Shown: positions 37,682 to 49,467 of the stretch, piece by piece | Layout: every line of letters begins with the position of its first letter | Numbering within the stretch: the stretch's first letter is position 1 | Source of the DNA: a virus | Lineage: Duplodnaviria; Caudoviricetes | DNA length: 60,558 nt | Strand: one strand, 5' to 3' | IMG/VR virus record: IMGVR_UViG_3300025808_000004 | Coordinates: 1-60,558 of that record | Position numbers and translations under genes: made by a program | The notes under the pieces: generated by a model | Database searches by the model: none | The model's input: the letters and a program-made list of their open reading frames with translations, nothing else | Told to the model about the DNA's origin: nothing

Positions 37682-38560
37682 ATGACATTTAAGCCCCTGC
37701 TCGCCTATACCGTGAAAGATGCAGAAATTCTCCATTACCCAGTGCTTGTGTCACCGAAACTGGATGGCATTCGTTGTGTGATCTACAACGACCAACCAGT
37801 CTCCCGGACACTTAAGTCCATACCCAACCAGTTCATCCAGGCCAAGCTGGGGTTCTATCCACCTTTCGACGGGGAACTTATGGTCGGCGATCCGCTGGAC
37901 CCTGCTGCATTCAACAAGTCCACGTCTGGGATTATGTCTCATGACGGTGAGCCAGCATTCACGTATTGGGTCTTTGACTGGATTGACCCGTCTCATACCA
38001 ATTGGCCCTTTGAAAAACGCCTTCGAATGGCTGAGAGTGTAATAAAAACCAATAAATGGCCCTGGGTCAGACTAGTCCCGCACACCCAAGCGGACAACGC
38101 AGAAGAACTCCTTCGCCTTGAAGCCTACTATGTCGGGCTCGGCTACGAGGGGGTTATGGTTCGCGCACCATGGGGAACCTACAAATATGGGCGTTCCACC
38201 GAAAGCCAAGGGCTCCTCGGTAAAGTAAAGCGGTTTGAAGACACTGAGGGCGAAATCGTTGGGTTTGAGGAACTCATGCACAACGAGAACGAGGCAGCCA
38301 TCAACAACCTGGGTTACCAGGAGCGGTCGACAGCACAAGCAGGCCAAGTTCCTGGCAATACACTTGGAGCACTACGGGTCAGCCATCCAGACTTTGAAGA
38401 GACATTCGGGATTGGTACGGGCTTTACGGCGGATGAAAGGTTTACACTGTGGCAAATTCGCGACACACTGACCGGACAGAACGTAAAGTTCAAACACCAG
38501 CCGGCGGGTGCAAAAGACAGGCCACGGTTCCCAAGCTATCTGGGCCTTCGAAAGGATTGA
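37682..38560 (+). CDS. ATP-dependent DNA ligase
   Basis: SPKLDGIR (motif I), FDGEL, VFD, YEGVMVR, YKYGRS, KVKRF, GTGF, PRFP; start at ATG 37682. Confidence 0.93.
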   Translation: MTFKPLLAYTVKDAEILHYPVLVSPKLDGIRCVIYNDQPVSRTLKSIPNQFIQAKLGFYPPFDGELMVGDPLDPAAFNKSTSGIMSHDGEPAFTYWVFDWIDPSHTNWPFEKRLRMAESVIKTNKWPWVRLVPHTQADNAEELLRLEAYYVGLGYEGVMVRAPWGTYKYGRSTESQGLLGKVKRFEDTEGEIVGFEELMHNENEAAINNLGYQERSTAQAGQVPGNTLGALRVSHPDFEETFGIGTGFTADERFTLWQIRDTLTGQNVKFKHQPAGAKDRPRFPSYLGLRKD

Positions 38561-38562
38561 AT

Positions 38563-38823
38563 ATGGATGCCTTCTTCCACTTGAAACCAATAGGGTTGTC
38601 TGAGACAGTCTACTCGGAGGCTATCTCCAACATGAAAGAAGCACGGAAAAAGCGCGACGGGCGATGGCTTGCCGAGCTTTATGTGGAGGCATTCATTCTC
38701 CTGGAAGATGCAGGCCTTATCAATCGCGACAAAACGCTCAACATTGAGTGGTATGAAGAACTCCTCTGGCATGCCCACCTGGACGCCCAGATCGACATTC
38801 CTGTGACAGAGAGAAACCGATGA
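38563..38823 (+). CDS. hypothetical protein
   Basis: AAGGA RBS; operon spacing. Confidence 0.55.
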   Translation: MDAFFHLKPIGLSETVYSEAISNMKEARKKRDGRWLAELYVEAFILLEDAGLINRDKTLNIEWYEELLWHAHLDAQIDIPVTERNR

Positions 38824-39161
38824 ACATTCTTCCCTCAAGCCCGATCAGCCAATACATCACAGCCATTGAGCTGGACGGCAAGCCTGTCAAAGCTACGTTT
38901 GTCGACATGGAGACCAGTCGCATTCAATACTGGAATGCTGGCCAACAGGTCGAAGCCACCGGCCAAATACGTATTCTGTTGGAAAGTAAAGCTAAAGCAG
39001 CTTCACTTGATCCAGTTCGGGCTAATGAATTGGATAAATTACTTGAGCAAATCAAACAGAAAATGGCAAACATGGAAACAGACCGTATGATCACAGCCTA
39101 TGCGGAATGCAAAAAATGGCTCGGCCTTTTTGCATCAGCCGAAACTATGGATCGGGAATGA
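38820..39161 (+). CDS. hypothetical protein
   Basis: ATGA overlap with the upstream gene. Confidence 0.6.
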   Translation: MNILPSSPISQYITAIELDGKPVKATFVDMETSRIQYWNAGQQVEATGQIRILLESKAKAASLDPVRANELDKLLEQIKQKMANMETDRMITAYAECKKWLGLFASAETMDRE

Positions 39162-39162
39162 C

Positions 39163-40524
39163 ATGGCCCAGCACGCTAGACTTTCTGCTTCTGGCTCAAA
39201 GCAATGGATGAACTGTCCTGGTTCCGTTGCTACAGAAGCACGCAACCCAAATCCGCGCAGCTCATCTGTCTTCGCAATGGAAGGCACGGCCGCACACTTG
39301 CTTTGTGAACTCTATGCCAGCGAGGGCCTTGCACCTGAGGAGTTCCTTGGCGAGACCATTTATATTTGGCAGGATGATGCCTATTTGGAACGCCATCTGG
39401 CACAGGCGGTGGCTGAAAAGGGCGTTACTCTAGCTGATGTCCCGGTCGCCATGGAATTCCTGGTAGATCAAGACATGGTGGACGCCATTGAATACTTTGT
39501 CGCGGCCGTGGAGACAACGCGTTCCCGGCTTGACCCAAAAGGGCGTGAAGAGTATTCCGAGAAATGGCTTGATCTGACATGGCTTCACCCTCTGCTCGGC
39601 GGCACGGGTGACTATATCAGCGTGGAGGCATTCGGCTGGGCTGAGTTGATCGATTATAAGCATGGCCGGGGCGTTCTGGTAGAAGTTCGCGACAACAGCC
39701 AGCTCAAGCTCTATGGCATCGGGGTTCTAAACATGTTCCCTGACTGCGAGGGCGTTCGTATGACGATCGTCCAACCCCGCAAGGAGCACGAAGACGGGCC
39801 AATCCGCTCCATCGAATATACCCGTGAAGAGTTGATGGATTTTGCCGAGGAGGTTCGTGTCGCTGCAGAAGCTACCCAGCTTCAGAACGCTACCCTCTGT
39901 GCCGGTGAATGGTGCACCTTCTGTGGCGCTAAAGCCTATGTGGATGAGAATGGCGACTTCTATGAGTGCCCGGCTCTTATCAAAGCCATGCAAGAGGAAG
40001 CCCAGATGGACTTTGCTGGCGTGCCTCCGGAGATCGGCATCCCCATTCCGACCACAAACGCCGGACTTGCCCGTGCATCTAAATGGCTCGGGGTCTTCGA
40101 CAACTATGTGAAGGCCGTGGAAGGGGCTGTCCAGCGCGAACTGCTTGCCGGTCGTCCTGTCGAAGGCTATAAGCTTGTCCGCAAGAAAGCTAACAGAGCG
40201 TTTGGGGCCTTTATCGAGGAAGTCGATGAGCTAACGGGCACTGACGACAACCACTGGATGGCCATGTCTGAGGACGACGTGATCGCCATCGTGGAAAGCG
40301 AGCTTGGCGAGGAGTATGTGGCCAAGTGCTATCAACCCCCGAAACTCAGGTCTCCAGCACAGTTCGAAAAGCTGGGTCGTGAGTTTAAGAAACTGACAGG
40401 CGAGATTGCCTATAAGCCAGAGGGCGGTTTGACAGTTACGAATGAGGCAGACACGCGACCGGCCGTCGAAGTCACACAGGCTGGCGGTTCAGACTTCCCT
40501 GATGACCTTTCGAACGGAAATTGA
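39163..40524 (+). CDS. DUF2800 PD-(D/E)XK (Cas4-like) exonuclease
   Basis: HARLSAS...W.NCPGS, A.EGTAAH, GTGD, IDYKHGRG, QLKLY, IVQPR, WC.FC. Confidence 0.9.
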   Translation: MAQHARLSASGSKQWMNCPGSVATEARNPNPRSSSVFAMEGTAAHLLCELYASEGLAPEEFLGETIYIWQDDAYLERHLAQAVAEKGVTLADVPVAMEFLVDQDMVDAIEYFVAAVETTRSRLDPKGREEYSEKWLDLTWLHPLLGGTGDYISVEAFGWAELIDYKHGRGVLVEVRDNSQLKLYGIGVLNMFPDCEGVRMTIVQPRKEHEDGPIRSIEYTREELMDFAEEVRVAAEATQLQNATLCAGEWCTFCGAKAYVDENGDFYECPALIKAMQEEAQMDFAGVPPEIGIPIPTTNAGLARASKWLGVFDNYVKAVEGAVQRELLAGRPVEGYKLVRKKANRAFGAFIEEVDELTGTDDNHWMAMSEDDVIAIVESELGEEYVAKCYQPPKLRSPAQFEKLGREFKKLTGEIAYKPEGGLTVTNEADTRPAVEVTQAGGSDFPDDLSNGN

Positions 40525-40526
40525 GC

Positions 40527-40847
40527 ATGGCAAGCAATCGTATTGTATTGTTCATAGGTAACAACTCGTTCTATCTTTCGGGCTACGTGAACAGCAAATC
40601 CTATATCCGGGGCTATGTCGAAAATGGAGACTATAACCTCTACATTGTTAAGCAGGAACTGGCTTGCTGGATCGCCTATCATGCAACTGCAAAGAACCAG
40701 TGCACCGAAAGCCATCAGATAGGTCTCCCGTTTGACGGTGCCTCTGTGACCCACGTGGTGATCCCGGAAACGATGAGGGCGGACCACAACACCATCATCA
40801 ACTGGGCCCGTAGCCAAAAACGGAAGAAAACATGGCTAACCAGATAA
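40527..40847 (+). CDS. hypothetical protein
   Basis: Operon spacing. Confidence 0.55.
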   Translation: MASNRIVLFIGNNSFYLSGYVNSKSYIRGYVENGDYNLYIVKQELACWIAYHATAKNQCTESHQIGLPFDGASVTHVVIPETMRADHNTIINWARSQKRKKTWLTR

Positions 40848-41026
40848 CCCCAGCAATGCTGCTCCAGCTAGCCAAGACCGTTCAGGCGGAAATGGAGAAA
40901 GTGTGCCCGGACCAACCGCCTCTTGTAATGCGAGCGGTCACTCTGTTGGTCGGTGAGTCCTATCTTCAAGCAGCAGCAGTCGAGAAGACTATCAATGACT
41001 TTTATAGGCGCCCTCCAACTAAATAA
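40832..41026 (+). CDS. hypothetical protein
   Basis: Short overlap with the upstream gene. Confidence 0.5.
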   Translation: MANQITPAMLLQLAKTVQAEMEKVCPDQPPLVMRAVTLLVGESYLQAAAVEKTINDFYRRPPTK

Positions 41027-41072
41027 GTGTTTCCCCGTTGAAAACAATTAGAATATATTTATTAAATCCCAT

Positions 41073-41215
41073 GGCACTTCGATCCATGAAAGTCCGAAGG
41101 TAATCTTCAGCGCAGGACTGGTGAAATAGGTCGGGATCAACGGCGGTAGCTCTGAAGCCACAGGAGTCCGCCAACTACATAAGCCATCCCAATGTGGGAT
41201 TTCAGTGTCAAGGAG
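41073..41215 (+). ncRNA. structured 5' leader of the SSB gene
   Basis: Nested stems GGCACT/AGTGTC, GATCC/GGATC, AGTCC/GGACT, GAAG/CTTC, GGCGG/CCGCC and ATCCCA/TGGGAT, ending at the AGGAG RBS. Confidence 0.5.
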
Positions 41216-41221
41216 ACAACG

Positions 41222-41803
41222 ATGGCTGAACGTTTGAAATGTGTCACACCTCCGTTCCGTGTGAGTTTCCCGGCAATTTTCGAGGCTTCGTCCTATCAGG
41301 GCGGCACCTCGAAGTATTCCGTGGTCATGCTCTTCTACCCGGCGAAGTTCACGGACGCCGACAAGAAGGCCTGGAAGACCATGCAGGTCATTGCCGACGC
41401 AGCTTCCAAGGACAAGTTCAAGAAGCTGATCAAGGATCTGCCTGCAAACTTCAAGAAGCCCATCCGGGACGGCGTCGAGAAGGAGCACCTGGACGGCTAT
41501 GGCGATGGCTGCATGTTCGCCACCGCTTCCTCGAAGCAACGGCCGGGCCTCGTCGATCGCAACAAGCAGCCCATCCTGACCGAGGAAGAGTTCTACCCTG
41601 GCTGCTGGGCTCGCGCGACCGTCACCGCCTATCCCTATGACAACGTAGGTAAGGGCGTGGCATTCGGTCTGCACAACCTCCAGAAGCTCGGCGACGACGA
41701 GAACTTCACCGGCCGGATGGCTGCTGAGGACGACTTCGGTGATGACGCCGACGACGTGTGGAGCGGTTCTGACATCGCCCCCGAAGACGATCCGACGGCG
41801 TAA
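41222..41803 (+). CDS. single-stranded DNA-binding protein (DUF2815, T7 gp2.5-like)
   Basis: RVSFP.IFE, KYSV, PIRDG, FYPGCWARA, KGVAFGLHNLQK; acidic tail ending DDPTA. Confidence 0.9.
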   Translation: MAERLKCVTPPFRVSFPAIFEASSYQGGTSKYSVVMLFYPAKFTDADKKAWKTMQVIADAASKDKFKKLIKDLPANFKKPIRDGVEKEHLDGYGDGCMFATASSKQRPGLVDRNKQPILTEEEFYPGCWARATVTAYPYDNVGKGVAFGLHNLQKLGDDENFTGRMAAEDDFGDDADDVWSGSDIAPEDDPTA

Positions 41804-41840
41804 TCCAACGGGTCCAGTTCCGGTTGCCCCCGGAGCGGCT

Positions 41841-41870
41841 AAGCCAGTGGTTAACTCCACTGGCTTTTTC
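41841..41870 (+). terminator. rho-independent terminator after the SSB gene
   Basis: AAGCCAGTGG-TTAACT-CCACTGGCTT-TTTC. Confidence 0.8.
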
Positions 41871-41950
41871 TATTGCTTTGTCGGTTTAATCTTTGCAGTG
41901 CATAGTGCATTCTAATCATATCAACCACGTCGACTATGGAGAATGAGGAT

Positions 41951-42427
41951 ATGACCGACTTGAATGCTACCATTCTTGCCCTACAGATTGATCAAGGAGT
42001 CCGCTTTGTGGAAGTAGAGTTCTTCCGCGATACCACTGGGGATGAGCGCTGTGGCCCTGCTGGCTGGTCTGGGAAAACCTCCTACATCTACAAAGTCGAG
42101 CCTGCAATTTTTGCAGGGCTGAAAATCGGGTCCTTGGTCGTCGCCCAAGCTCGGAGTCATTTGCAAGTTGTCCGTGTAGTGGCAATGGACGTGAACGTCG
42201 ATTTTGGAAACCTGAACTTCATCAAGCTCTTGCGCTGGGTTGTTGCAGACATTACTTCCAGTATCGAGCGGGTGTCGTTACTGGTTGCCGCCGAAGTGAA
42301 TGCCAAGAAGCAGATCACCAATGCTCGTCTCCGCAAGGAAAGTCAAGACTTGCTGGCAGCGGCAAACCTCACGGGCGAAAGTATTCTTTTGCTTCCGCCC
42401 AAAGTGGCTGCCGAGCACAAGGACTGA
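41951..42427 (+). CDS. hypothetical phage protein
   Basis: GAGGA RBS; Y.YKV...LKIG.LVV...VV.V pattern; upstream TTTAAT-17-CATTCT. Confidence 0.65.
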   Translation: MTDLNATILALQIDQGVRFVEVEFFRDTTGDERCGPAGWSGKTSYIYKVEPAIFAGLKIGSLVVAQARSHLQVVRVVAMDVNVDFGNLNFIKLLRWVVADITSSIERVSLLVAAEVNAKKQITNARLRKESQDLLAAANLTGESILLLPPKVAAEHKD

Positions 42428-42474
42428 TGCAAAGTTGGTATACACGGGGCCAAAGCTCCGTGTATACTGTCTAA

Positions 42475-42664
42475 GTGTTTTGAGATGATCCGTTGGCCCA
42501 GCTGCCATTAGCTCAGGTCGATTAATAACCGGGAAGAGCCGTCTTAGTGGTAAGACGCATAAGCTCCTGCCGACGGATCATCTCAGAGCACGTGTGTGTC
42601 CGTGGAGGTCCTGCGTGCTCGGAAGGCCCGGTGTGGTATTGGACGTGGCGCACCGGGTCTTTTT
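42475..42664 (+). ncRNA. candidate structured RNA / attenuator upstream of the DNA polymerase gene
   Basis: 23-bp basal stem 42475-42497/42569-42591 with G-U pairs; internal hairpins with complementary loops; terminator at 42624-42664; upstream TATACA-18-TATACT. Confidence 0.65.
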
Positions 42665-42681
42665 ATTCTGCCGGGGGCCCC

Positions 42682-44943
42682 ATGATAGTAGGTGATTTTG
42701 AGACACGCTCTGCTTGTGATCTGAAGAAAGCAGGCGCATGGGCATATTCGACACATCCCACAACGGAAGTCATGTGTTTCTGCTGGAACTTCCAAGAAGA
42801 CCCTATTGAGCAGGTCTATGAGTGGCAAGCTGGGTTCCCGCATCTCGGCATTGACCAGTCACCATTTCCCCAAGAGCTGGCAGACCGCATTGCTGCCGGA
42901 GAAATTCTTGAAGCCCACAATGCTTTCTTTGAATATTGTATTTGGAACCACGTCTGGTGCAAAATGCTTCCGGGCCTGCCAGAGCTATCACTTAATCAGA
43001 TCCGATGCTCTGCAGCTAAAGCGGCGACATTTGCCTTGCCTCGTGCTCTTGACAAAGCCATTGCGGCATTAGGCCTTCCTCAAAAGAAGGATATGGAGGG
43101 CTCGGCTAATATGCTGAAGCTTGCCAAGCCCCGCAAGCTGACTGCAGACGAAAAGCGACATTTCGAAGCACAGGGTGTTGACCCTGGGACTGTGATACTC
43201 TTCCTGGAAAACCGGGAGATGATACTTCGCAACACTAAGTATTGTGCTCAGGACGTCCGGGCTGAACGTGGGCTATCCTCTGTTCTACGAGAATTGCCAC
43301 CCCGTGAGCTTGAGTTTTGGCAGATGGACCTTCGCATGAATGCCCGGGGCATTACGTGCGACATGGCCTTGGTGCATATAGCAATCAAGCTTGCCGAAGA
43401 GGACACAGACCACCAGAATGCCGAGTTGAAAGAACTTACGGACGGCATGGTCGAGAAAGCCTCTGGCCGTATGAAGTTCAAACAGTGGATGCATGACAAT
43501 GGTGTCAAAATCCCGAATACCCAGGGGGCAGTCATTGACATCCTTCTAGGACATGACCCTGGAGATGAAGAAGCCACAGCCGAGCTTAGGGCTGAACTTC
43601 GTGGTCTTGCCGAAACCATTACACCAAAAACACGGCGCGCCCTTGAAATTGTGCGGGACGTCAACCGATCGTCCGTCGCCAAATACAAGCAGATGATTAT
43701 CCAAGTTTCTGAAGGCAATCGCCTCAGGGACATGATGCTCTATTGCGGAGCTGCACGAACTGGCCGTTGGTCAGGCAAGGGTGTCCAGCCACACAACTTC
43801 ATCCGTGGGTATTCAGAGATTATGCAGGAGGTCTGCCAAGACATCCTTAAAGCTGATCCCGAAAGACTGCGCCTGCTCTACAACGGGTCTGTCCTCGAGG
43901 TGCTATCCAAAGCTACTCGTGGGGCTATGGTTGCGGCATACGGCAAAAAGCTGATGGTAGCTGACTTCGCGGCCATTGAAGCTCGGGTGCTTCTGTGGCT
44001 TGCGCTAGCTATGTCTGCCCTTGACATCTTCTATCGCGGCGAGGACATTTACTTGGACATGGCTTCTGCCATTTTCAAGTATCCATGCACCAATAAGGAC
44101 GACTTCCCATTCGAGCGTAAAGTTGGCAAGGCTGCAATTCTCGGTCTCGGCTATCAGATGGGCTGGGAGAAGTTTGAAGATGAGTGCCGCAATAAGAACG
44201 GGATCACCGACCAAGAACCTGAGTTTTTCAAAGACGTTGTTCGGGTCTATCGTGAAGAACGCTTTCCAGAAATAAAGTCCTTCTGGTATGACTTTGAGGT
44301 AGCTGCCATTAAAGCCGTAAGGCAGTATGACCCAAAAACCATGTCTAAGGGGCCGCGTATTGAATGCCGTCGCCTAGCTTGGTTTATGTGGGGTCAGTTC
44401 CTCCATATGGAATTGCCATCCGGTCGGTTACTCGCCTATTTTAGGCCGCTAATCAAGGTAAGGAAAACTTATCGGTTTCCGGCGCTTAACGAGCGAGGGC
44501 ATGAATGCACTGCAATGGCCACTGGCGGAGCAGACCTAACAGAGACTCAAGCCCGTAGGCTTGCAATAGCCAGGGCAAAAATTGCCAACAAAAAACTCAT
44601 ACCGAATGGCAAGGTTCAGCTATTTAAGAGTGAAGTCCTCACCTTCATGCATGAAAACTCCGTCACTCGTCAGTGGGAACGGAAAGAGACATACGGCGGA
44701 GAGCTGGTTGAAAACGCCACACAAGCAACAGCGCGTGACTTGATGGCCGAGGCGATGTTGCGGGTTGACAACCATCCAGACTATGATTTATTGTTGTCTG
44801 TGCACGATGAAGAGATTGCCGAATGTGACGAGGGCAAAGGCAATCTCGAAGAGTTTGAGGCTCTTATGGAAGAACTACCTAGCTGGGCTGAAGGCTGTCC
44901 AGTTAACGCTGAAGGCTGGGAAGGTTATAGATACAGGAAGTAG
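42682..44943 (+). CDS. family A DNA polymerase with 3'-5' exonuclease
   Basis: DFETRS, AHNAFFE, YCAQDV, TGRWSG, motif A DFAAIEARVL, motif B RKVGKAAILGLGY, ENATQA, motif C VHDE; start at ATG 42682. Confidence 0.95.
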   Translation: MIVGDFETRSACDLKKAGAWAYSTHPTTEVMCFCWNFQEDPIEQVYEWQAGFPHLGIDQSPFPQELADRIAAGEILEAHNAFFEYCIWNHVWCKMLPGLPELSLNQIRCSAAKAATFALPRALDKAIAALGLPQKKDMEGSANMLKLAKPRKLTADEKRHFEAQGVDPGTVILFLENREMILRNTKYCAQDVRAERGLSSVLRELPPRELEFWQMDLRMNARGITCDMALVHIAIKLAEEDTDHQNAELKELTDGMVEKASGRMKFKQWMHDNGVKIPNTQGAVIDILLGHDPGDEEATAELRAELRGLAETITPKTRRALEIVRDVNRSSVAKYKQMIIQVSEGNRLRDMMLYCGAARTGRWSGKGVQPHNFIRGYSEIMQEVCQDILKADPERLRLLYNGSVLEVLSKATRGAMVAAYGKKLMVADFAAIEARVLLWLALAMSALDIFYRGEDIYLDMASAIFKYPCTNKDDFPFERKVGKAAILGLGYQMGWEKFEDECRNKNGITDQEPEFFKDVVRVYREERFPEIKSFWYDFEVAAIKAVRQYDPKTMSKGPRIECRRLAWFMWGQFLHMELPSGRLLAYFRPLIKVRKTYRFPALNERGHECTAMATGGADLTETQARRLAIARAKIANKKLIPNGKVQLFKSEVLTFMHENSVTRQWERKETYGGELVENATQATARDLMAEAMLRVDNHPDYDLLLSVHDEEIAECDEGKGNLEEFEALMEELPSWAEGCPVNAEGWEGYRYRK

Positions 44944-44998
44944 GGTATACTTTCTAGCTATAGAAGTGCAAAACTGGCCACATGGATTATACGATAGC

Positions 44999-46504
44999 AT
45001 GACCGTAAACTACCTCAAATCCTCTATAGCCCATTGGCCGGAAGTTGATCCGTCAAAGCCTCGCTGGACTCACCAGCTCGAGGAATTGGAGGAGTATGGT
45101 CTTGACAAAGCTCGTGGGCTATTGTGGGGAATGCGGACCGGCAAGAGCAGGATCATTGTCGACAGTGCCAATGCTCTTCGAGATGGCGGCAAAATCCGTG
45201 GCGGGCTTATCTTTGCCCCTAATGGCGTTCACCTCAACTGGGTGCTGAAGCAAATCCCATTTTATTCGTGGCCTGGCATGTCTTGGAGCGCACAGCACTG
45301 GAGTTCTGACTTTGCGCGGGAACATCCGAGTTCTTGGTCGGAGAGGTTCTGTGCTCTGCTCAAGTCAAATGCAGACATGCGCTGGTTTACTGTCAATTCG
45401 GAAAGTCTCATTATGCCAGCAGTCAAGAAAGCCATCAACCAGTTCCTTGACTCTGTCAATGGTGAAGTGATAGCCATTGCTGATGAGAGTGTGGACTTTC
45501 GCACTCCGGGCTCAAAGCGCACCAACGTTGCTAGAGCCTATTTCAAGCGCCTGCCATTCCGCCGTATTCTTGATGGCACTGCGCTAATGAACAGCCCCCT
45601 GCACGCGTTCAGTCAATTTGAACTGTTGGAACCTGGGGCTTTGGGTTTCCGTAAATATGAGGATTTTAAGCAATACCACTCTGTGTGGCGGAGCGTGAGG
45701 AACAAAGCGGGGCGCTATTATCCAAAGTTGGACCACTACACAAATCTGGAGACCCTTCGTGAAAACATCGGAGATTATGCCAGTGTAGTTCTTCGTGAGG
45801 ACTGTGACATGCCCGACCTTCTGCCGATTGAGGTGGTGGTGGAGATGTCCGAGCTTCAAAAGAGGGCATACCTTACCCTCATTGAGAAAAACCTGCTTGA
45901 GTTTGAGAACGGAGCTGAAATTGATGCCATTGAAGGTGGCAAGCGGGCAATAAAGTTCCATCAAATTGTATCAGGCTTTGCCATCGATGACTTTGGGGAC
46001 ATTCAGTCTATAGATGATGATCCACCTATCCTACAAGAGCTCAGGAGGCAGGTAGTTGACACCCCCAAATATATCGTCTGGTGCCGCTTTAGAGAGGATA
46101 TTCGCCGCGTTTCCAACGCTCTCCGGGCCATGGGCCACAAGATTGTGGAATACCATGGAGGAGTGCCACAAGGCTTGCGGGCTGGATACGTCGACCAGTT
46201 CAATAATGATGACGCTACAGTTGGCCTTGTCGGGCAGCCACAAGCTGGTGGCCGAGGACTTGAATTGCCCTGTGACGCTATCATCTGGTATTCAAGCACT
46301 TATGACGCTATTATCCGCAACCAAGCAAACGAGCGTGGAACCATCATGGGCGGCCGATCCGTTTCCATCATCACACTCGCTACGCCGGGCACTGTTCACG
46401 ACGACATTATCGCTTCCGCAGAGCAGAAAGTCTGCATTGGTGACTGGGTGGCCGGTTCTGGTTTACGTGATAGCTTAATGCGCTGGAAAAGTAACTTATC
46501 ATGA
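44999..46504 (+). CDS. SNF2-like SF2 DNA helicase
   Basis: GMRTGKS, IADES, ILDGT, QAGGRGLEL, QANER; start probably ATG 44999. Confidence 0.85.
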   Translation: MTVNYLKSSIAHWPEVDPSKPRWTHQLEELEEYGLDKARGLLWGMRTGKSRIIVDSANALRDGGKIRGGLIFAPNGVHLNWVLKQIPFYSWPGMSWSAQHWSSDFAREHPSSWSERFCALLKSNADMRWFTVNSESLIMPAVKKAINQFLDSVNGEVIAIADESVDFRTPGSKRTNVARAYFKRLPFRRILDGTALMNSPLHAFSQFELLEPGALGFRKYEDFKQYHSVWRSVRNKAGRYYPKLDHYTNLETLRENIGDYASVVLREDCDMPDLLPIEVVVEMSELQKRAYLTLIEKNLLEFENGAEIDAIEGGKRAIKFHQIVSGFAIDDFGDIQSIDDDPPILQELRRQVVDTPKYIVWCRFREDIRRVSNALRAMGHKIVEYHGGVPQGLRAGYVDQFNNDDATVGLVGQPQAGGRGLELPCDAIIWYSSTYDAIIRNQANERGTIMGGRSVSIITLATPGTVHDDIIASAEQKVCIGDWVAGSGLRDSLMRWKSNLS

Positions 46505-46614
46505 CTGCTCGTCGAAAGTTACTTAAAAGAATACCATATAACCTAAGCGCTAGTACAAGGGGATTTGCATAAATTCTACTTGATGAGTGTTGGCTAAATA
46601 AGCTCTTTTGCTGG

Positions 46615-46643
46615 CTTACAAGCACTGAGCAGATAGCTATTCT
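46615..46643 (+). promoter_or_regulatory. sigma70-type promoter
   Basis: CTTACA-17-TATTCT. Confidence 0.6.
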
Positions 46644-46705
46644 CAATATTGTTCACTGAGACTGAAGACTACGACTGAAACCAGACCGAACATGAGGAGC
46701 TTACT

Positions 46706-47167
46706 ATGAAATCGATCCTGTCCCCGATTGTGGACATCCTGCCACTGATTAATTTTGCTGCCCCCGATACCACTTCTGGTGCCGCCGCTGGTGGGAAACC
46801 GACGGCAAAGCCGACCGATGCACCGGCAGCCATTGCCAAGCCTGCTGGAGCCAAGCCTGCCGAAAAGGCTGAACCGAAGCGTGGCATCGGCACTGCGGCA
46901 ATGGAAGCAATCTTGAACTCGGCCACCAACGAGGAGGCTCTGGCGGCCGTCCGCAAGGAGTTCCCGGACGCCAACACCACGAAGGCGTCGATCAACTGGT
47001 ATCGGAACAAGTTGCGCAAGGATGGCACGATCAGTACCGGCGGCATCTACAAGGGCAAGCCCGTTCCGAACGCGCGCGAGATGGCCAAGGACGCCAAGCC
47101 GGCCGAGGCACCCAAGGCGAAGGACACCAAACCCACCGCAGCTGCTGGCGATGATCCGACCGCCTGA
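46706..47167 (+). CDS. AKP-rich (histone-like) wHTH DNA-binding protein (FPDANTT family), ends DDPTA
   Basis: GAGGAG RBS; EFPDANTTKASINWYRNKLRKDG flanked by Ala/Lys/Pro repeats. Confidence 0.75.
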   Translation: MKSILSPIVDILPLINFAAPDTTSGAAAGGKPTAKPTDAPAAIAKPAGAKPAEKAEPKRGIGTAAMEAILNSATNEEALAAVRKEFPDANTTKASINWYRNKLRKDGTISTGGIYKGKPVPNAREMAKDAKPAEAPKAKDTKPTAAAGDDPTA

Positions 47168-47190
47168 GGCCTGACTCACTCACAGTGCAA

Positions 47191-47225
47191 AAAGGGCCCG
47201 GGCTTCAATGCCCGGGCTTTTCTTT
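47191..47225 (+). terminator. rho-independent terminator
   Basis: GCCCGGGC-TTCAAT-GCCCGGGC followed by a T-tract. Confidence 0.8.
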
Positions 47226-47310
47226 ATAGGGCTGCATTCTATAAACTTAGTGGTTTCATTTCCAATTATAACATAGTATTCTAAATACAACAGAGTAAGT
47301 GGAGAATACC

Positions 47311-48363
47311 ATGTCTGCAGGAATTGAGATGAATGGCGTCTTCTATCAGAACGTCTACTATATGCCAATGGCCCACGGCATTGGTGCAGACAGCCAAGGT
47401 CGTTATGAAATCAAAGACCCACCAAACTGCGGTTGGTCTCGGGCTTTGGTCATTTGGCCTGACGATGATGACGAGCCTGTTACTGGATCGCGTCGCAGGA
47501 AGAAAACCGCCAAGCGGGTGACCCTGTTCTGTCCGTATACCCTGGAGGCCTATCAGATCACCCCAGCAGCCCGTGAAGTGGCCCATCAAACAGCCTATCC
47601 ATTGACTGAGACTCTCATCTGCGAGCTGGAAAACATCATCAGCCGGAACTGGAAAATATATGCTGGCTTTGGGCACCAGAAAGCCTATGATGTTGCAGCA
47701 CTAGTTCTAACGAAGCTCGGGAAAGCCGTTCCCAACTACATGTCACCGGCATTGGAAAATCTCGAGTATACCGAGGACAATGTGCCCAATCGCCATGGTA
47801 AGCCGGTTGGAGAGGCCCTGCTCCGACCAATCAACCGGGACTCCAAGCGCGGACAGGTTGCGGCCTTCTTCCTGGAAAGCAACAGTGGGTCAATTCGCGA
47901 AGCAATGGCCAAGTTTGATATGTCCCGCTCGGGTGTGCTGACCCACCTCCACGGCCTCAACAAGGATCATGGCTTGGGCTATGTCCTTCAGGGCGACGTG
48001 GCCACCATCATGCTTCCGCCGGAGTGCACGGACCCTCTGGCCGACGAGACGGTTGTCCAAGTTCATACCCAAGCAGTCTCTGCCCAACGAGCAGGCAAAA
48101 CTTGCAAGCCCACTGTCACTGCTTTGCCTGCCAAAGGCAAGCGGCGCGAAGTGGCTCTGCTAATGCTCGAGGAAACAGCCATTGTAGACGTGGCCGAGAA
48201 GGTTGGCTGTTCAGTCAACTCTGTCAGGTCACACCTCCATGACCTGCATACAAAACACGGGTTCGGTTACGGGTTGTCTCCGGACAAGGCACGTGGTAAG
48301 CTGCTCGTGCCGGCTGGATGGACTGCCGACTATGATCCTGAAGACCTTGACCCGCTAGCCTGA
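47311..48363 (+). CDS. protein with two tandem C-terminal wHTH domains, ends DPLA
   Basis: Repeats KRGQVA...SRSGVLTHLHGLNKDHGLGY and KRREVA...SVNSVRSHLHDLHTKHGFGY; GGAG RBS. Confidence 0.7.
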   Translation: MSAGIEMNGVFYQNVYYMPMAHGIGADSQGRYEIKDPPNCGWSRALVIWPDDDDEPVTGSRRRKKTAKRVTLFCPYTLEAYQITPAAREVAHQTAYPLTETLICELENIISRNWKIYAGFGHQKAYDVAALVLTKLGKAVPNYMSPALENLEYTEDNVPNRHGKPVGEALLRPINRDSKRGQVAAFFLESNSGSIREAMAKFDMSRSGVLTHLHGLNKDHGLGYVLQGDVATIMLPPECTDPLADETVVQVHTQAVSAQRAGKTCKPTVTALPAKGKRREVALLMLEETAIVDVAEKVGCSVNSVRSHLHDLHTKHGFGYGLSPDKARGKLLVPAGWTADYDPEDLDPLA

Positions 48364-48372
48364 GGAGCGCAC

Positions 48373-49467
48373 ATGGAATTGTCCAAAGTATCATCGTGGA
48401 TGGAGAGGTATCTTGCTCTCGTCCACCGCTTCAACGCCGACATTATCGGCCTGCCAATTCCCGAGACGCCGACCCGTCTTGGTGAGACCCGCAAAAAATG
48501 GGCGCTCGATGCGCTCAACGAAGAAGTGGGCGAGTTCTTTGCTGCCAAGACTCTCGAAGACGAGGTGGATGCTCTGGTCGATTTGTCCTACTTTGCACTC
48601 GGTCGTCTGATCGAGATGGGTGTGGTTCCCGGTGCCGTCTTCGACGAAGTCCATGAAGCCAACATGCGCAAGCGCCGGGGCGAGCTGTCCAAGCGGCCGA
48701 ACAGTCTTGGCTTCGATGCCATGAAACCCAAGGGATGGACCGGCCCTGATCTGCTTCCCTACCTCGGTCTGGATCGCTCTGACGTTCGTGCGATGTATGA
48801 CGTGAAGTTAGCCGAGCGTGAGCTTGCCGAAGCTGCACAGACGCTCGACGCCGAGCCAGGGGAAGCTGGAAAGCCGAAGTTTCTGATACTCGGCCACGCC
48901 CGGCACGGCAAGGATACCGTGGCGGAAATCCTCCGCGATTGCTACGGCTTCACCTTCACCTCGTCCTCGTTGTTCTGTGCGGAGAAGGTGATTTGGGAAG
49001 CAGTGCACAATCATGGAGATGCACTCGATCGTCACGAGAAAGCAGGCCAACCGGGCATGTCCACGCTGACACTCCACGAAGAGCTTGAGATGATGAAAGG
49101 CCGCGGATACTCGAGTTACACGGAATGCTTCGCTGACCGGGCCAACTTCCGTGCGGCCTGGTTCTCCCTGATCGCTGCCTACTGCTATCCTGACAAAGAA
49201 CAACTAGCCCGTGAAATCTATGCAGAGAATGACATCTATGTTGGCATCCGCAACACCCGTGAACTGAATGCAGTTCTCAACTCGGGGCTGGCAGACGTGT
49301 CCATCTGGGTTGATGCAAAGGAACGCATTGGCCCCGAGCCGCTGAGTTCCTGCACCGTTGAGCCGTGGATGGCTATGTTCACCATCGACAACAACGGGAC
49401 AGCTGAAGACCTTCATCGGAACGTCCACCAGCTGATGTCTACCCTTGGTATTGAAAGGATTGCGTGA
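48373..49467 (+). CDS. fusion of a MazG/PRA-PH-like NTP pyrophosphatase and a dNMP kinase-like P-loop domain
   Basis: N-terminal EEVGEF...EVDALVDL.YF..G...FDEVHEANM.K...KPKGW; C-terminal ILGHARHGKDT, GIRN..E, IDNNGT. Confidence 0.8.
   Translation: MELSKVSSWMERYLALVHRFNADIIGLPIPETPTRLGETRKKWALDALNEEVGEFFAAKTLEDEVDALVDLSYFALGRLIEMGVVPGAVFDEVHEANMRKRRGELSKRPNSLGFDAMKPKGWTGPDLLPYLGLDRSDVRAMYDVKLAERELAEAAQTLDAEPGEAGKPKFLILGHARHGKDTVAEILRDCYGFTFTSSSLFCAEKVIWEAVHNHGDALDRHEKAGQPGMSTLTLHEELEMMKGRGYSSYTECFADRANFRAAWFSLIAAYCYPDKEQLAREIYAENDIYVGIRNTRELNAVLNSGLADVSIWVDAKERIGPEPLSSCTVEPWMAMFTIDNNGTAEDLHRNVHQLMSTLGIERIA

Follow-up and report, generated by a model that had tools for sequence, protein, structure and literature searches.

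A conserved, uncatalogued RNA domain between a promoter-like hairpin and a terminator ahead of the DNA polymerase gene of an RDJL3-like phage, with relatives in high-G+C proviruses and in permuted transfer-messenger RNA genes

The window analyzed here is the whole stretch of 60,558 nucleotides (nt) of IMG/VR record IMGVR_UViG_3300025808_000004, and the record is complete (60.5 kb). The virus is a relative of Roseobacter phage RDJL3 (polymerase gene DNA, 72.8% identical over 74% of a 3-kb query). An RNA element occupies positions 42437-42684, between an open reading frame (ORF) of 163 amino acids (stop at 42427) and a family-A DNA polymerase gene. Genes for an exonuclease and an Enc34-type single-stranded DNA-binding protein lie upstream, and a helicase gene lies 3' of the polymerase gene. 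The polymerase product matches Pfam DNA_pol_A (E = 1.1e-13), while PHROGs and Pfam were mostly uninformative for the neighboring ORFs. The core of the element is a real, conserved, folded plus-strand RNA domain of an uncatalogued family, with a promoter-like hairpin on its 5' side and a conserved terminator on its 3' side. The parts of the element in the window, where P0 to P6 denote helices, are the following.

42437..42469, plus strand: P0, a 14-bp hairpin with a putative sigma-70-like promoter (TATACA 42439-42444, 18-nt spacer, TATACT 42463-42468)
42475..42591, plus strand: core RNA domain, 117 nt (consensus fold, covariance model matches and covariation)
42475-42497 with 42569-42591, plus strand: P1, the long closing stem, 23 bp
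42500-42503 with 42562-42565, plus strand: P2
42505-42508, plus strand: junction CCAU
42511-42514 with 42536-42539, plus strand: P3, enclosing GGUC (42516-42519) and GGGAAG (42531-42536)
42540-42546 with 42551-42557, plus strand: P5 hairpin, loop GUGG
42586-42592 with 42614-42620, plus strand: P6, an alternative helix pairing GAGCACG with CGUGCUC
42625..42664, plus strand: predicted intrinsic terminator (stem 42625-42636 with 42649-42659, loop KGACRUGG 42641-42648, U5 42660-42664)
42665..42684, plus strand: G-rich Shine-Dalgarno (SD)-like tract and polymerase start codon (ATG 42682-42684)

The polymerase start is the ATG at 42682, in frame with an ORF at 42547..44943. The initial annotation of this locus had considered that the longer frame from 42547 might be the translated form. 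This is not supported, since polymerase homology begins at residue 1 or 2 of the protein that starts at 42682. The polymerase coding sequence (CDS) of RDJL3 is annotated from the equivalent ATG, and the length differences inside the element among RDJL3-like relatives are not multiples of three.

The sequence features described in the initial annotation are all present, with coordinates that are exact or within one base. The plus-strand fold has a predicted energy of -129.8 kcal/mol (shuffled sequences, -88.9 +/- 4.8; z = -8.56; none of 200 shuffles as good), and the minus strand gave a z of -4.61. The 23-bp stem was borne out, except that it starts one base 5' of the position implied earlier. 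Its non-Watson-Crick pairs are three G-U pairs, which would be A-C on the opposite strand, in agreement with the proposed plus-strand RNA. The core domain occurs as a single copy across the 60.5-kb genome and scored 97.1 and 97.2 bits with two covariance models (R1, built from the RDJL3-like set, and R2, built from a mixed set).

Searching viral, metagenome, and genome contigs with the polymerase as a guide added 10 distinct loci that carry a homologous element, making 11 RDJL3-like loci with the window. The element lies directly ahead of the polymerase operon in all 11, counting the closest relative (L009; polymerase, 88% identical), where an inserted HNH endonuclease ORF (L009 1053-1499) separates the RNA unit from the polymerase gene and occupies the SD and ATG position right behind the terminator. 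No element was found at two loci with polymerases 34 to 38% identical (L007 and L019). The initial annotation had proposed a search for covariation in such polymerase-upstream regions, and covariation was found: RNAalifold, run on 12 RDJL3-like rows, predicted 50 consensus pairs and showed compensatory changes at 29. Together with the strand-specific G-U pairs, these changes indicate selection on RNA pairing across polymerases that are 60 to 88% identical.

The consensus fold is a three-way junction in which the motifs CCAU, GGUC, and GGGAAG.GC do not vary. In order, P1 is followed by a 4-bp P2 (AGCY/RGCU), single-stranded CCAU, P3 (GCYC/GRGC) around GGUC, an optional P4 (absent from the window element) and GGGAAG, and then P5, whose loop is variable, before the strand returns via P2 and P1. 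The 3' parts are unique to the RDJL3-like group: a variable linker ending in GYGCUC, a hairpin with a KGACRUGG loop, and a T-rich tail followed by the SD and ATG. Two details of the earlier description did not survive the comparison. The inner hairpin AGCUG-CCAU-UAGCU forms in the window only, while the relatives pair AGCY with a distal RGCU (P2) and GCYC with GRGC (P3). The proposed kissing loop between CCAU and the P5 loop makes 4 bp in the window and 1 to 3 bp in 23 others of the 25 members aligned below; L017 was also scored at 4 bp, but from a faulty extraction of the P5 loop and with G-U among the pairs. The P5 loops of the members include GGU, UGC, GAUC, GACC, CAAC, and others. Comparison included, the original observation is thus partly confirmed.

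The promoter-like motif does lie inside a palindrome, at 42439-42468, as had been described. It occurs once in the window and in none of 100 shuffled sequences, with 9 of 12 consensus matches. Among the RDJL3-like loci, the corresponding site has 7 to 9 of 12 matches and, in 10 of the 11, a spacer of 17 to 18 nt, with the -10 hexamer ending a few bases 5' of the first stem. A scan of 38000-48000 for such sites, by consensus matches only, returned 10 versus 7.5 expected. The P0 hairpin is kept in 10 sequences, including both Rhodobacter phages (RcG) described below, and has 14 predicted pairs, 7 of them with compensatory changes. L002 and L011 have no palindrome of this pattern; they keep the promoter spacing and, by inspection, have a separate terminator-like hairpin for the upstream genes ahead of the promoter-like site, an arrangement that argues for an independent transcription start. 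The G-U pairs of P0 on the plus strand argue that the hairpin also forms in RNA transcribed from upstream. P0 therefore probably serves both as a promoter and as the end hairpin of the upstream operon.

A terminator 17 nt before the polymerase ATG had been predicted, and it is present: a G+C-rich stem of 11 to 12 bp followed by U5 is kept in the relatives, which fits an intrinsic terminator at the sequence level. There are 11 consensus pairs, 7 of which show a compensatory change in at least one sequence. A simple hairpin scan did not list it, probably because its loop exceeds the 3- to 8-nt limit of the scan. The T-rich tail is found in all 11 RDJL3-like loci; it is good in the window, L003, L009, and L011 and weak in L017, L006, and L004. 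Only 11 to 14 nt separate it from the ATG in all 11, so transcription of the polymerase gene must pass the hairpin unless a poor, overlapping promoter-like site is used. Such a site (TKGACR of the loop, with the T-rich tail as -10; 7 to 9 of 12 matches) was considered and rejected as the main route: most of the -10 candidates have no A at position 2, and the -10 ends 11 to 14 nt from the ATG. No convincing separate polymerase promoter was found in the 11 loci, and hence read-through of the terminator is the most likely source of the polymerase mRNA.

The loop sequence KGACRUGG is kept in all 11 RDJL3-like loci while the stem covaries. We considered pairing with the invariant CCAU (4 bp), a -35-like box, and protein binding as roles for it, and none was supported.

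Ahead of the terminator, the alternative pairing GAGCACG/CGUGCUC (P6) noted in the initial annotation is retained as complementarity in the RDJL3-like group, with 93.1% of 72 alignment cells paired (18 to 62% when slid). L017 and L005 are misaligned there, yet they pair by hand. The 5' strand of P6 takes in the final 6 nt of the P1 3' strand and one nucleotide more, and P6 thus excludes the outer 6 to 7 bp of P1; its 3' strand stops 4 nt before the terminator stem. When P6 was forced, the predicted unpaired probability of the SD-AUG region rose in 5 of 9 usable sequences, was unchanged in 3, and fell in 1; these 9 exclude two further sequences with a misassigned P6 partner.

The domain is not confined to polymerase operons. 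Two polymerase-independent motif scans of the viral collection, seeded with exact motifs and therefore blind to divergent members, yielded 57 stretches, of which 20 were positive with the covariance models (i.e., 5 known RDJL3-like and 15 high-G+C stretches) and 37 gave no match. The 15 correspond to 14 distinct sequences (two are identical) from provirus-type records with 58 to 72% G+C, scoring 50 to 90 bits with R2. With the two Rhodobacter phages, the family comprises 27 distinct members (11 RDJL3-like, 14 high-G+C proviral, and 2 Rhodobacter phage). An alignment of 25 sequences, which was fitted to the model and is hence biased toward the structure, has 92.8% of cells paired versus 71.0% after column shuffling and 34 to 44% when slid; 29 of 39 pairs changed on both sides, and none of 500 shuffles reached any of these measures. 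Sixteen columns, mostly junction and loop positions, are invariant across both subfamilies. In the high-G+C group the outer half of P1 is not real, leaving a P1 of 12 to 13 bp.

The surroundings of the proviral domains suggest an early operon. An ORF starts within 10 to 25 nt of the domain, with no terminator between, at 11 of the 14 loci; these ORFs are varied and small, and PHROGs and Pfam gave almost nothing for them. A tRNA-Met (CAT) gene lies 5 to 161 nt upstream on the same strand at 6 of the 14. In L031, a CI-like repressor gene (helix-turn-helix and Peptidase_S24 domains) diverges from a cro-like gene, which is followed by an HNH gene, the tRNA-Met gene, the element, and ORFs, with an integrase gene further out. 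Because the tRNA-Met and HNH genes stand between the cro-like gene and the element (L031 3767-5905), the tRNA gene is phage internal and not an integration site. L052 carries a homologous repressor gene and a cro-like gene, with the element ~380 nt past the latter, and in L044 and L037 the upstream region holds, on the other strand, weaker matches to repressors. The domain of temperate members thus lies in the early lytic operon, downstream of the cro-like gene where one was identified.

At all 14 high-G+C loci, one frame is open through the element (e.g., L052 4146-4662, minus strand). The distances from CCAT to GGGAAG are 24, 51, 54, and 57 nt, all multiples of three, and, by inspection, the stop of the open frame overlaps the next ORF start (ATGA or TAATG) in 11 of the 14. 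A protein-coding reading of these members was rejected: the frame of L031 also crosses the tRNA gene, the RDJL3-like spacing does not keep the periodicity, the ORF list of the window holds no frame spanning the whole element, and compensatory changes can be read from the alignment within the high-G+C group as well. We read the open frame as a shadow frame, but a dual constraint may exist. Three loci (L053, L035, and L049) have a copy of the P1 3' strand (GCCGUCCGAA-like) ~20 to 40 nt 5' of P1, which could trap the P1 5' strand, and an SD-proximal GGGCGGC that resembles the P1 5' strand; this is a possible four-segment switch that is not family-wide.

The initial annotation could not match the element to a named family, and this held in Rfam 15, where the whole window gave no match at the gathering threshold and 42300-42800 gave only noise (E > 4). 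The 14 proviral loci returned tRNAs only, as did 4 of them at E <= 5, and 7 RDJL3-like loci returned a single unrelated match (E = 0.59); at gathering and permissive thresholds together, nothing was reported for the element in the window and 25 related loci. Searches with blastn against isolated phages gave no match for the window element or for a proviral one. In the class of one alphaproteobacterial metagenome-assembled genome, a covariance model scan of 151 genomes found no match (a weak scan, with ~22 candidates scored per genome), and a motif scan of 401 genomes, not very sensitive, gave two pattern matches that were both negative with the models. Literature on roseophage and phage structured RNAs, processive antitermination, and permuted transfer-messenger RNA (tmRNA) held no description of the element (supplements not covered). 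So far, the family has been seen only in viral and proviral records, including those of Roseobacter and Rhodobacter phages.

The Rhodobacter members place the domain in a third setting. Among five isolated phages sharing the polymerase type, R2 matched one, Rhodobacter phage RcRudolph (41.2 bits; E = 2e-8). It found nothing in the whole records of Xanthomonas phage Mallos, Pseudomonas phages ZQG1 and AAT-1, and Variovorax phage V45iii, and in the three annotated records of these four the genes are tightly packed ahead of the polymerase gene. The RcRudolph match lies under an annotated hypothetical CDS, in a ~800-nt noncoding gap flanked by a HIRAN-domain gene and by genes leading to topoisomerase, polymerase, and helicase. 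This gap is a permuted alphaproteobacterial tmRNA gene (Rfam alpha_tmRNA, 94.8 bits; tmRNA_permuted, 103.6 bits), and ARAGORN calls a permuted tmRNA there with the tag ANDNVRMDAQALAA. In the Rfam alignment, the domain is a ~100-nt insertion between the ...CCACCA end of the acceptor piece and GGGGGCG of the coding piece, the place of the intervening sequence. This arrangement recurs in RcSimone-Hastad (94% identity; 41.2 bits). Both genes show the hallmarks of the type: an acceptor piece with T-arm and CCA, an acceptor 5' strand with G3-U70, and a tag frame that ends in ...LAA.

L097 2543-2957 (OP009285.1 ~49042-49456), minus strand: permuted tmRNA gene of RcRudolph, tag ANDNVRMDAQALAA
L098 1516-1929 (MW677525.1), plus strand: permuted tmRNA gene of RcSimone-Hastad, tag ANDNVRMDAQALAA

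The feature tables of these two stretches list no tmRNA, and the RcRudolph CDS that overlaps the gene (RCRUDOLPH_61) is probably spurious. A hairpin resembling the P0 of the window precedes the tmRNA gene in both phages, its 3' arm aligning with the TATA-like stretch that opens Rfam alpha_tmRNA. P1 of RcRudolph, together with an ACC/GCU internal loop and the acceptor stem, makes a helix of ~23 bp, equal in length to P1 of the window.

Three further phages encode permuted tmRNAs: RcXuper (tag ANENFAPMEMRLAA), vB_RpoS-V10 (tag ANINNAPMEMAIAA), and Cp1R7A-A1 (tag VAANDNHFEARALAA).

L099 744-1166: permuted tmRNA of RcXuper
L100 741-1167: permuted tmRNA of vB_RpoS-V10
L101 741-1150: permuted tmRNA of Cp1R7A-A1

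Their intervening sequences are unusually long (100 to 130 nt) and stem closed, and some motifs recall the domain (AGGUC ... GAGAAGAGGC). We do not claim them as homologues, R2 scoring them at only 12 to 19 bits. Between the promoter hairpin and P1, L001 (2650-2745) has a further structured domain of ~100 nt with an 11-bp closing stem and no Rfam match, and L006 and L018 have one at the equivalent place. The tmRNA acceptor piece of the RcG phages occupies this position.

ARAGORN found no tmRNA in the window, which has no tRNA-like domain, CCA, or tag frame, and Rfam found neither a tRNA-like domain nor a tag in the 7 other RDJL3-like loci scanned. Judged by sequence, the window element is related to part of a permuted tmRNA gene and is not itself one. 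A nonfunctional remnant of a decayed phage tmRNA gene would look somewhat like this, with a neighborhood and promoter hairpin similar to those of the RcG gene and with the tRNA-like domain and tag gone, and the palindromic promoter region could alternatively belong to a DNA-level element (an origin or operator). We consider either explanation very improbable, given the selection on RNA pairing described above and the occurrence of the domain without any tmRNA in 14 proviruses. The comparisons instead portray the domain as a portable RNA module that occurs in three settings, namely, at the head of the polymerase operon, in an early operon, and as the intervening sequence of permuted tmRNA genes.

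One alternative is a stand-alone small RNA that acts in trans or binds a protein and whose adjacency to the polymerase gene is incidental. It could be released by a promoter and terminator in RDJL3-like phages, by tRNA-type processing of the pre-tmRNA in the RcG phages, and by cleavage past tRNA-Met in temperate members. The promoter-RNA-terminator layout of the window, the location in a permuted tmRNA gene, with the CCA end on one side and the acceptor 5' strand of the coding piece on the other, the tRNA-Met genes upstream of 6 proviral domains, and the 16 invariant columns all fit this explanation, and a tRNA gene within the intervening sequence of a permuted tmRNA has been reported (PMC11915505). 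It accounts poorly for the position of all 11 RDJL3-like elements immediately ahead of a polymerase operon with no convincing separate promoter, and for the 11 proviral loci with a nearby ORF start and no terminator; P6 and anti-SD-like tracts also suggest coupling to the downstream gene. A released small RNA is, in our judgment, a possible but unlikely account.

A second alternative is an RNA-processing or stability cassette, in which P1 and the junction are cut by RNase III, RNase E, or an RNase P-type activity, or cut themselves, and so separate the flanking RNAs (acceptor and coding pieces, tRNA and mRNA, or upstream operon and polymerase mRNA). Once P1 was cut, P6 would shield the 5' end of the polymerase mRNA as a hairpin. 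The ~23-bp helix of RcRudolph matches the P1 of the window in length, the domain stands directly behind CCA ends, and the 5' strand of P6 is the 3' strand of P1, as expected if P6 forms once P1 is cut. The high-G+C P1 has only 12 to 13 bp, however, no Rfam ribozyme model matches, and cellular permuted tmRNA genes manage with short loops (~27 nt in the Rfam consensus). To our knowledge, RNase III sites need fewer than ~16 invariant unpaired nucleotides. We regard a processing cassette as distinctly unlikely.

A metabolite riboswitch that gates polymerase expression is suggested by the aptamer-like appearance of a variable closing P1 on a conserved junction, by the participation of the P1 3' strand in an alternative helix, and by the terminator of one large group and the adjacent SD of the other, which resemble alternative expression platforms. 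The alternative helix, however, does not touch the terminator (P6 shares 6 to 7 nt with P1 and none with the terminator), so that there is no platform exclusive with an aptamer P1, and the downstream genes (polymerase, HNH, unrelated small ORFs, and the tmRNA coding piece) share no pathway that would point to one ligand. The 151 genomes scanned with the model and the 401 scanned with the motif yielded none, by searches of low sensitivity. With no common downstream genes and one member in a stable-RNA precursor, this explanation is weaker than the small-RNA and processing alternatives, and we think it quite improbable. The initial annotation had suggested sensing of nucleotides or modified deoxynucleoside triphosphate pools in particular. 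Nothing supports this idea; the same domain precedes unrelated small ORFs and lies in a tmRNA precursor.

The reading that we prefer, tentatively and with real doubt, is that 42437-42684 forms a promoter-to-terminator unit on the plus strand whose leaky terminator gates transcription of the polymerase gene. The hairpin-embedded sigma-70-like promoter would head the unit, and the 117-nt three-way-junction domain with its 23-bp closing stem, an autonomous and stably folded module, would be made as a short, terminated transcript. The linker could re-pair with the 3' base of P1 to form P6. Polymerase mRNA would then be produced by read-through of the intrinsic terminator 17 nt before the ATG. This read-through may simply reflect a leaky terminator, or the folded domain may favor it in cis through an effect on RNA polymerase during elongation, in the manner of HK022 put or Tn916 canT. 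On the extended transcript, exchange of the P1 base for P6 would tend to expose the ribosome-binding site.

Several results weigh against this terminator-gating unit. The covariation of P6 is modest (double changes in 2 of 6 pairs, with 10 to 41 of 500 shuffles reaching the significant measures), and a forced full P1 is 1 to 11 kcal/mol more stable than a forced P6. Because P6 does not overlap the terminator stem, there is no classical antiterminator/terminator switch; the original pair of options, a stand-alone noncoding RNA or an attenuator, is still the right one, but not with P6 as a classical antiterminator. The conserved terminator loop is unexplained by read-through. The high-G+C group has no terminator after the domain, and an SD and ORF start follow instead. 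In the RcG phages the domain lies in a normally discarded segment of the pre-tmRNA, a location that suits a released stand-alone RNA or a processing signal no less than it suits a cis regulator. Mature two-piece tmRNA is described as lacking the intervening sequence (PMC11915505). Finally, the 24 sequencing runs listed for window positions 42300-43300 are all DNA contigs, with no RNA among them. The initial interpretation as a whole is partly supported. A bolder possibility, which we consider rather doubtful, is a new RNA class (i.e., a processive antiterminator that binds RNA polymerase and is unlike put in fold, or a self-processing ribozyme) placed in three transcript settings.

For a phage group in which none had been described, these data add a well-supported uncatalogued family of structured RNA whose covariation extends over the 25 sequences aligned. 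They also show that what a phage permuted tmRNA gene carries as its intervening sequence, a part normally discarded, can be a conserved domain with an independent life elsewhere, and they correct the annotation of the RcRudolph record, which has a hypothetical CDS and no tmRNA feature at this gene. Cultured systems carrying the domain exist: RDJL3 on Roseobacter denitrificans OCh 114, and RcRudolph and RcSimone-Hastad on Rhodobacter capsulatus. If the domain does control terminator read-through, it would represent a new RNA-only form of early-gene control outside the lambdoid phages; if it is a new RNA class, the tmRNA setting would tie stable-RNA maturation to early gene expression.

Among known systems, the RNase III hairpins of phages (e.g., the T7 early mRNA sites) and the translational operator of T4 gp43 offer partial parallels. 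Like them, the element places a long double-stranded intergenic stem before a replication gene, with a hairpin set right against the polymerase SD; unlike it, they are not known to have a conserved multihelix junction. Riboswitch and attenuator leaders also combine a conserved junction closed by a variable P1 with a following terminator and SD, and with an alternative partner for the P1 3' strand. The element differs from them in that its alternative helix does not compete with the terminator, its members have no common gene theme, and one member lies inside a stable-RNA precursor. HK022 put and Tn916 canT, processive antiterminator RNAs that act in cis in mobile elements, resemble it in position only, lying past an early promoter or a cro-like gene and before an intrinsic terminator and replication genes, and they likewise occur once per element, in cis orientation, and with no evident dedicated protein close by (PMC9378689; PMC11658703). 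The put RNA, of ~70 nt, consists of two stem-loops in a V shape (PMC9378689), versus a three-way junction closed by P1 in the domain, a difference that counts further against terminator gating by a put-like route. The position is therefore put-like and the fold is not, and antitermination, with put compared by description, may apply by analogy. Two-piece permuted tmRNA genes (RF01849 and RF04321) differ in having, in the Rfam consensus, a short and unconserved intervening loop of ~27 nt, whereas the element is a conserved junction domain of 95 to 160 nt. The likeness is nevertheless one of place and of neighborhood: the RcG domain fills the very loop between the CCA of the acceptor piece and the 5' strand of the coding piece, and the tmRNA gene of these phages shares with the window a similar promoter hairpin and a similar exonuclease ... 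polymerase-helicase module.

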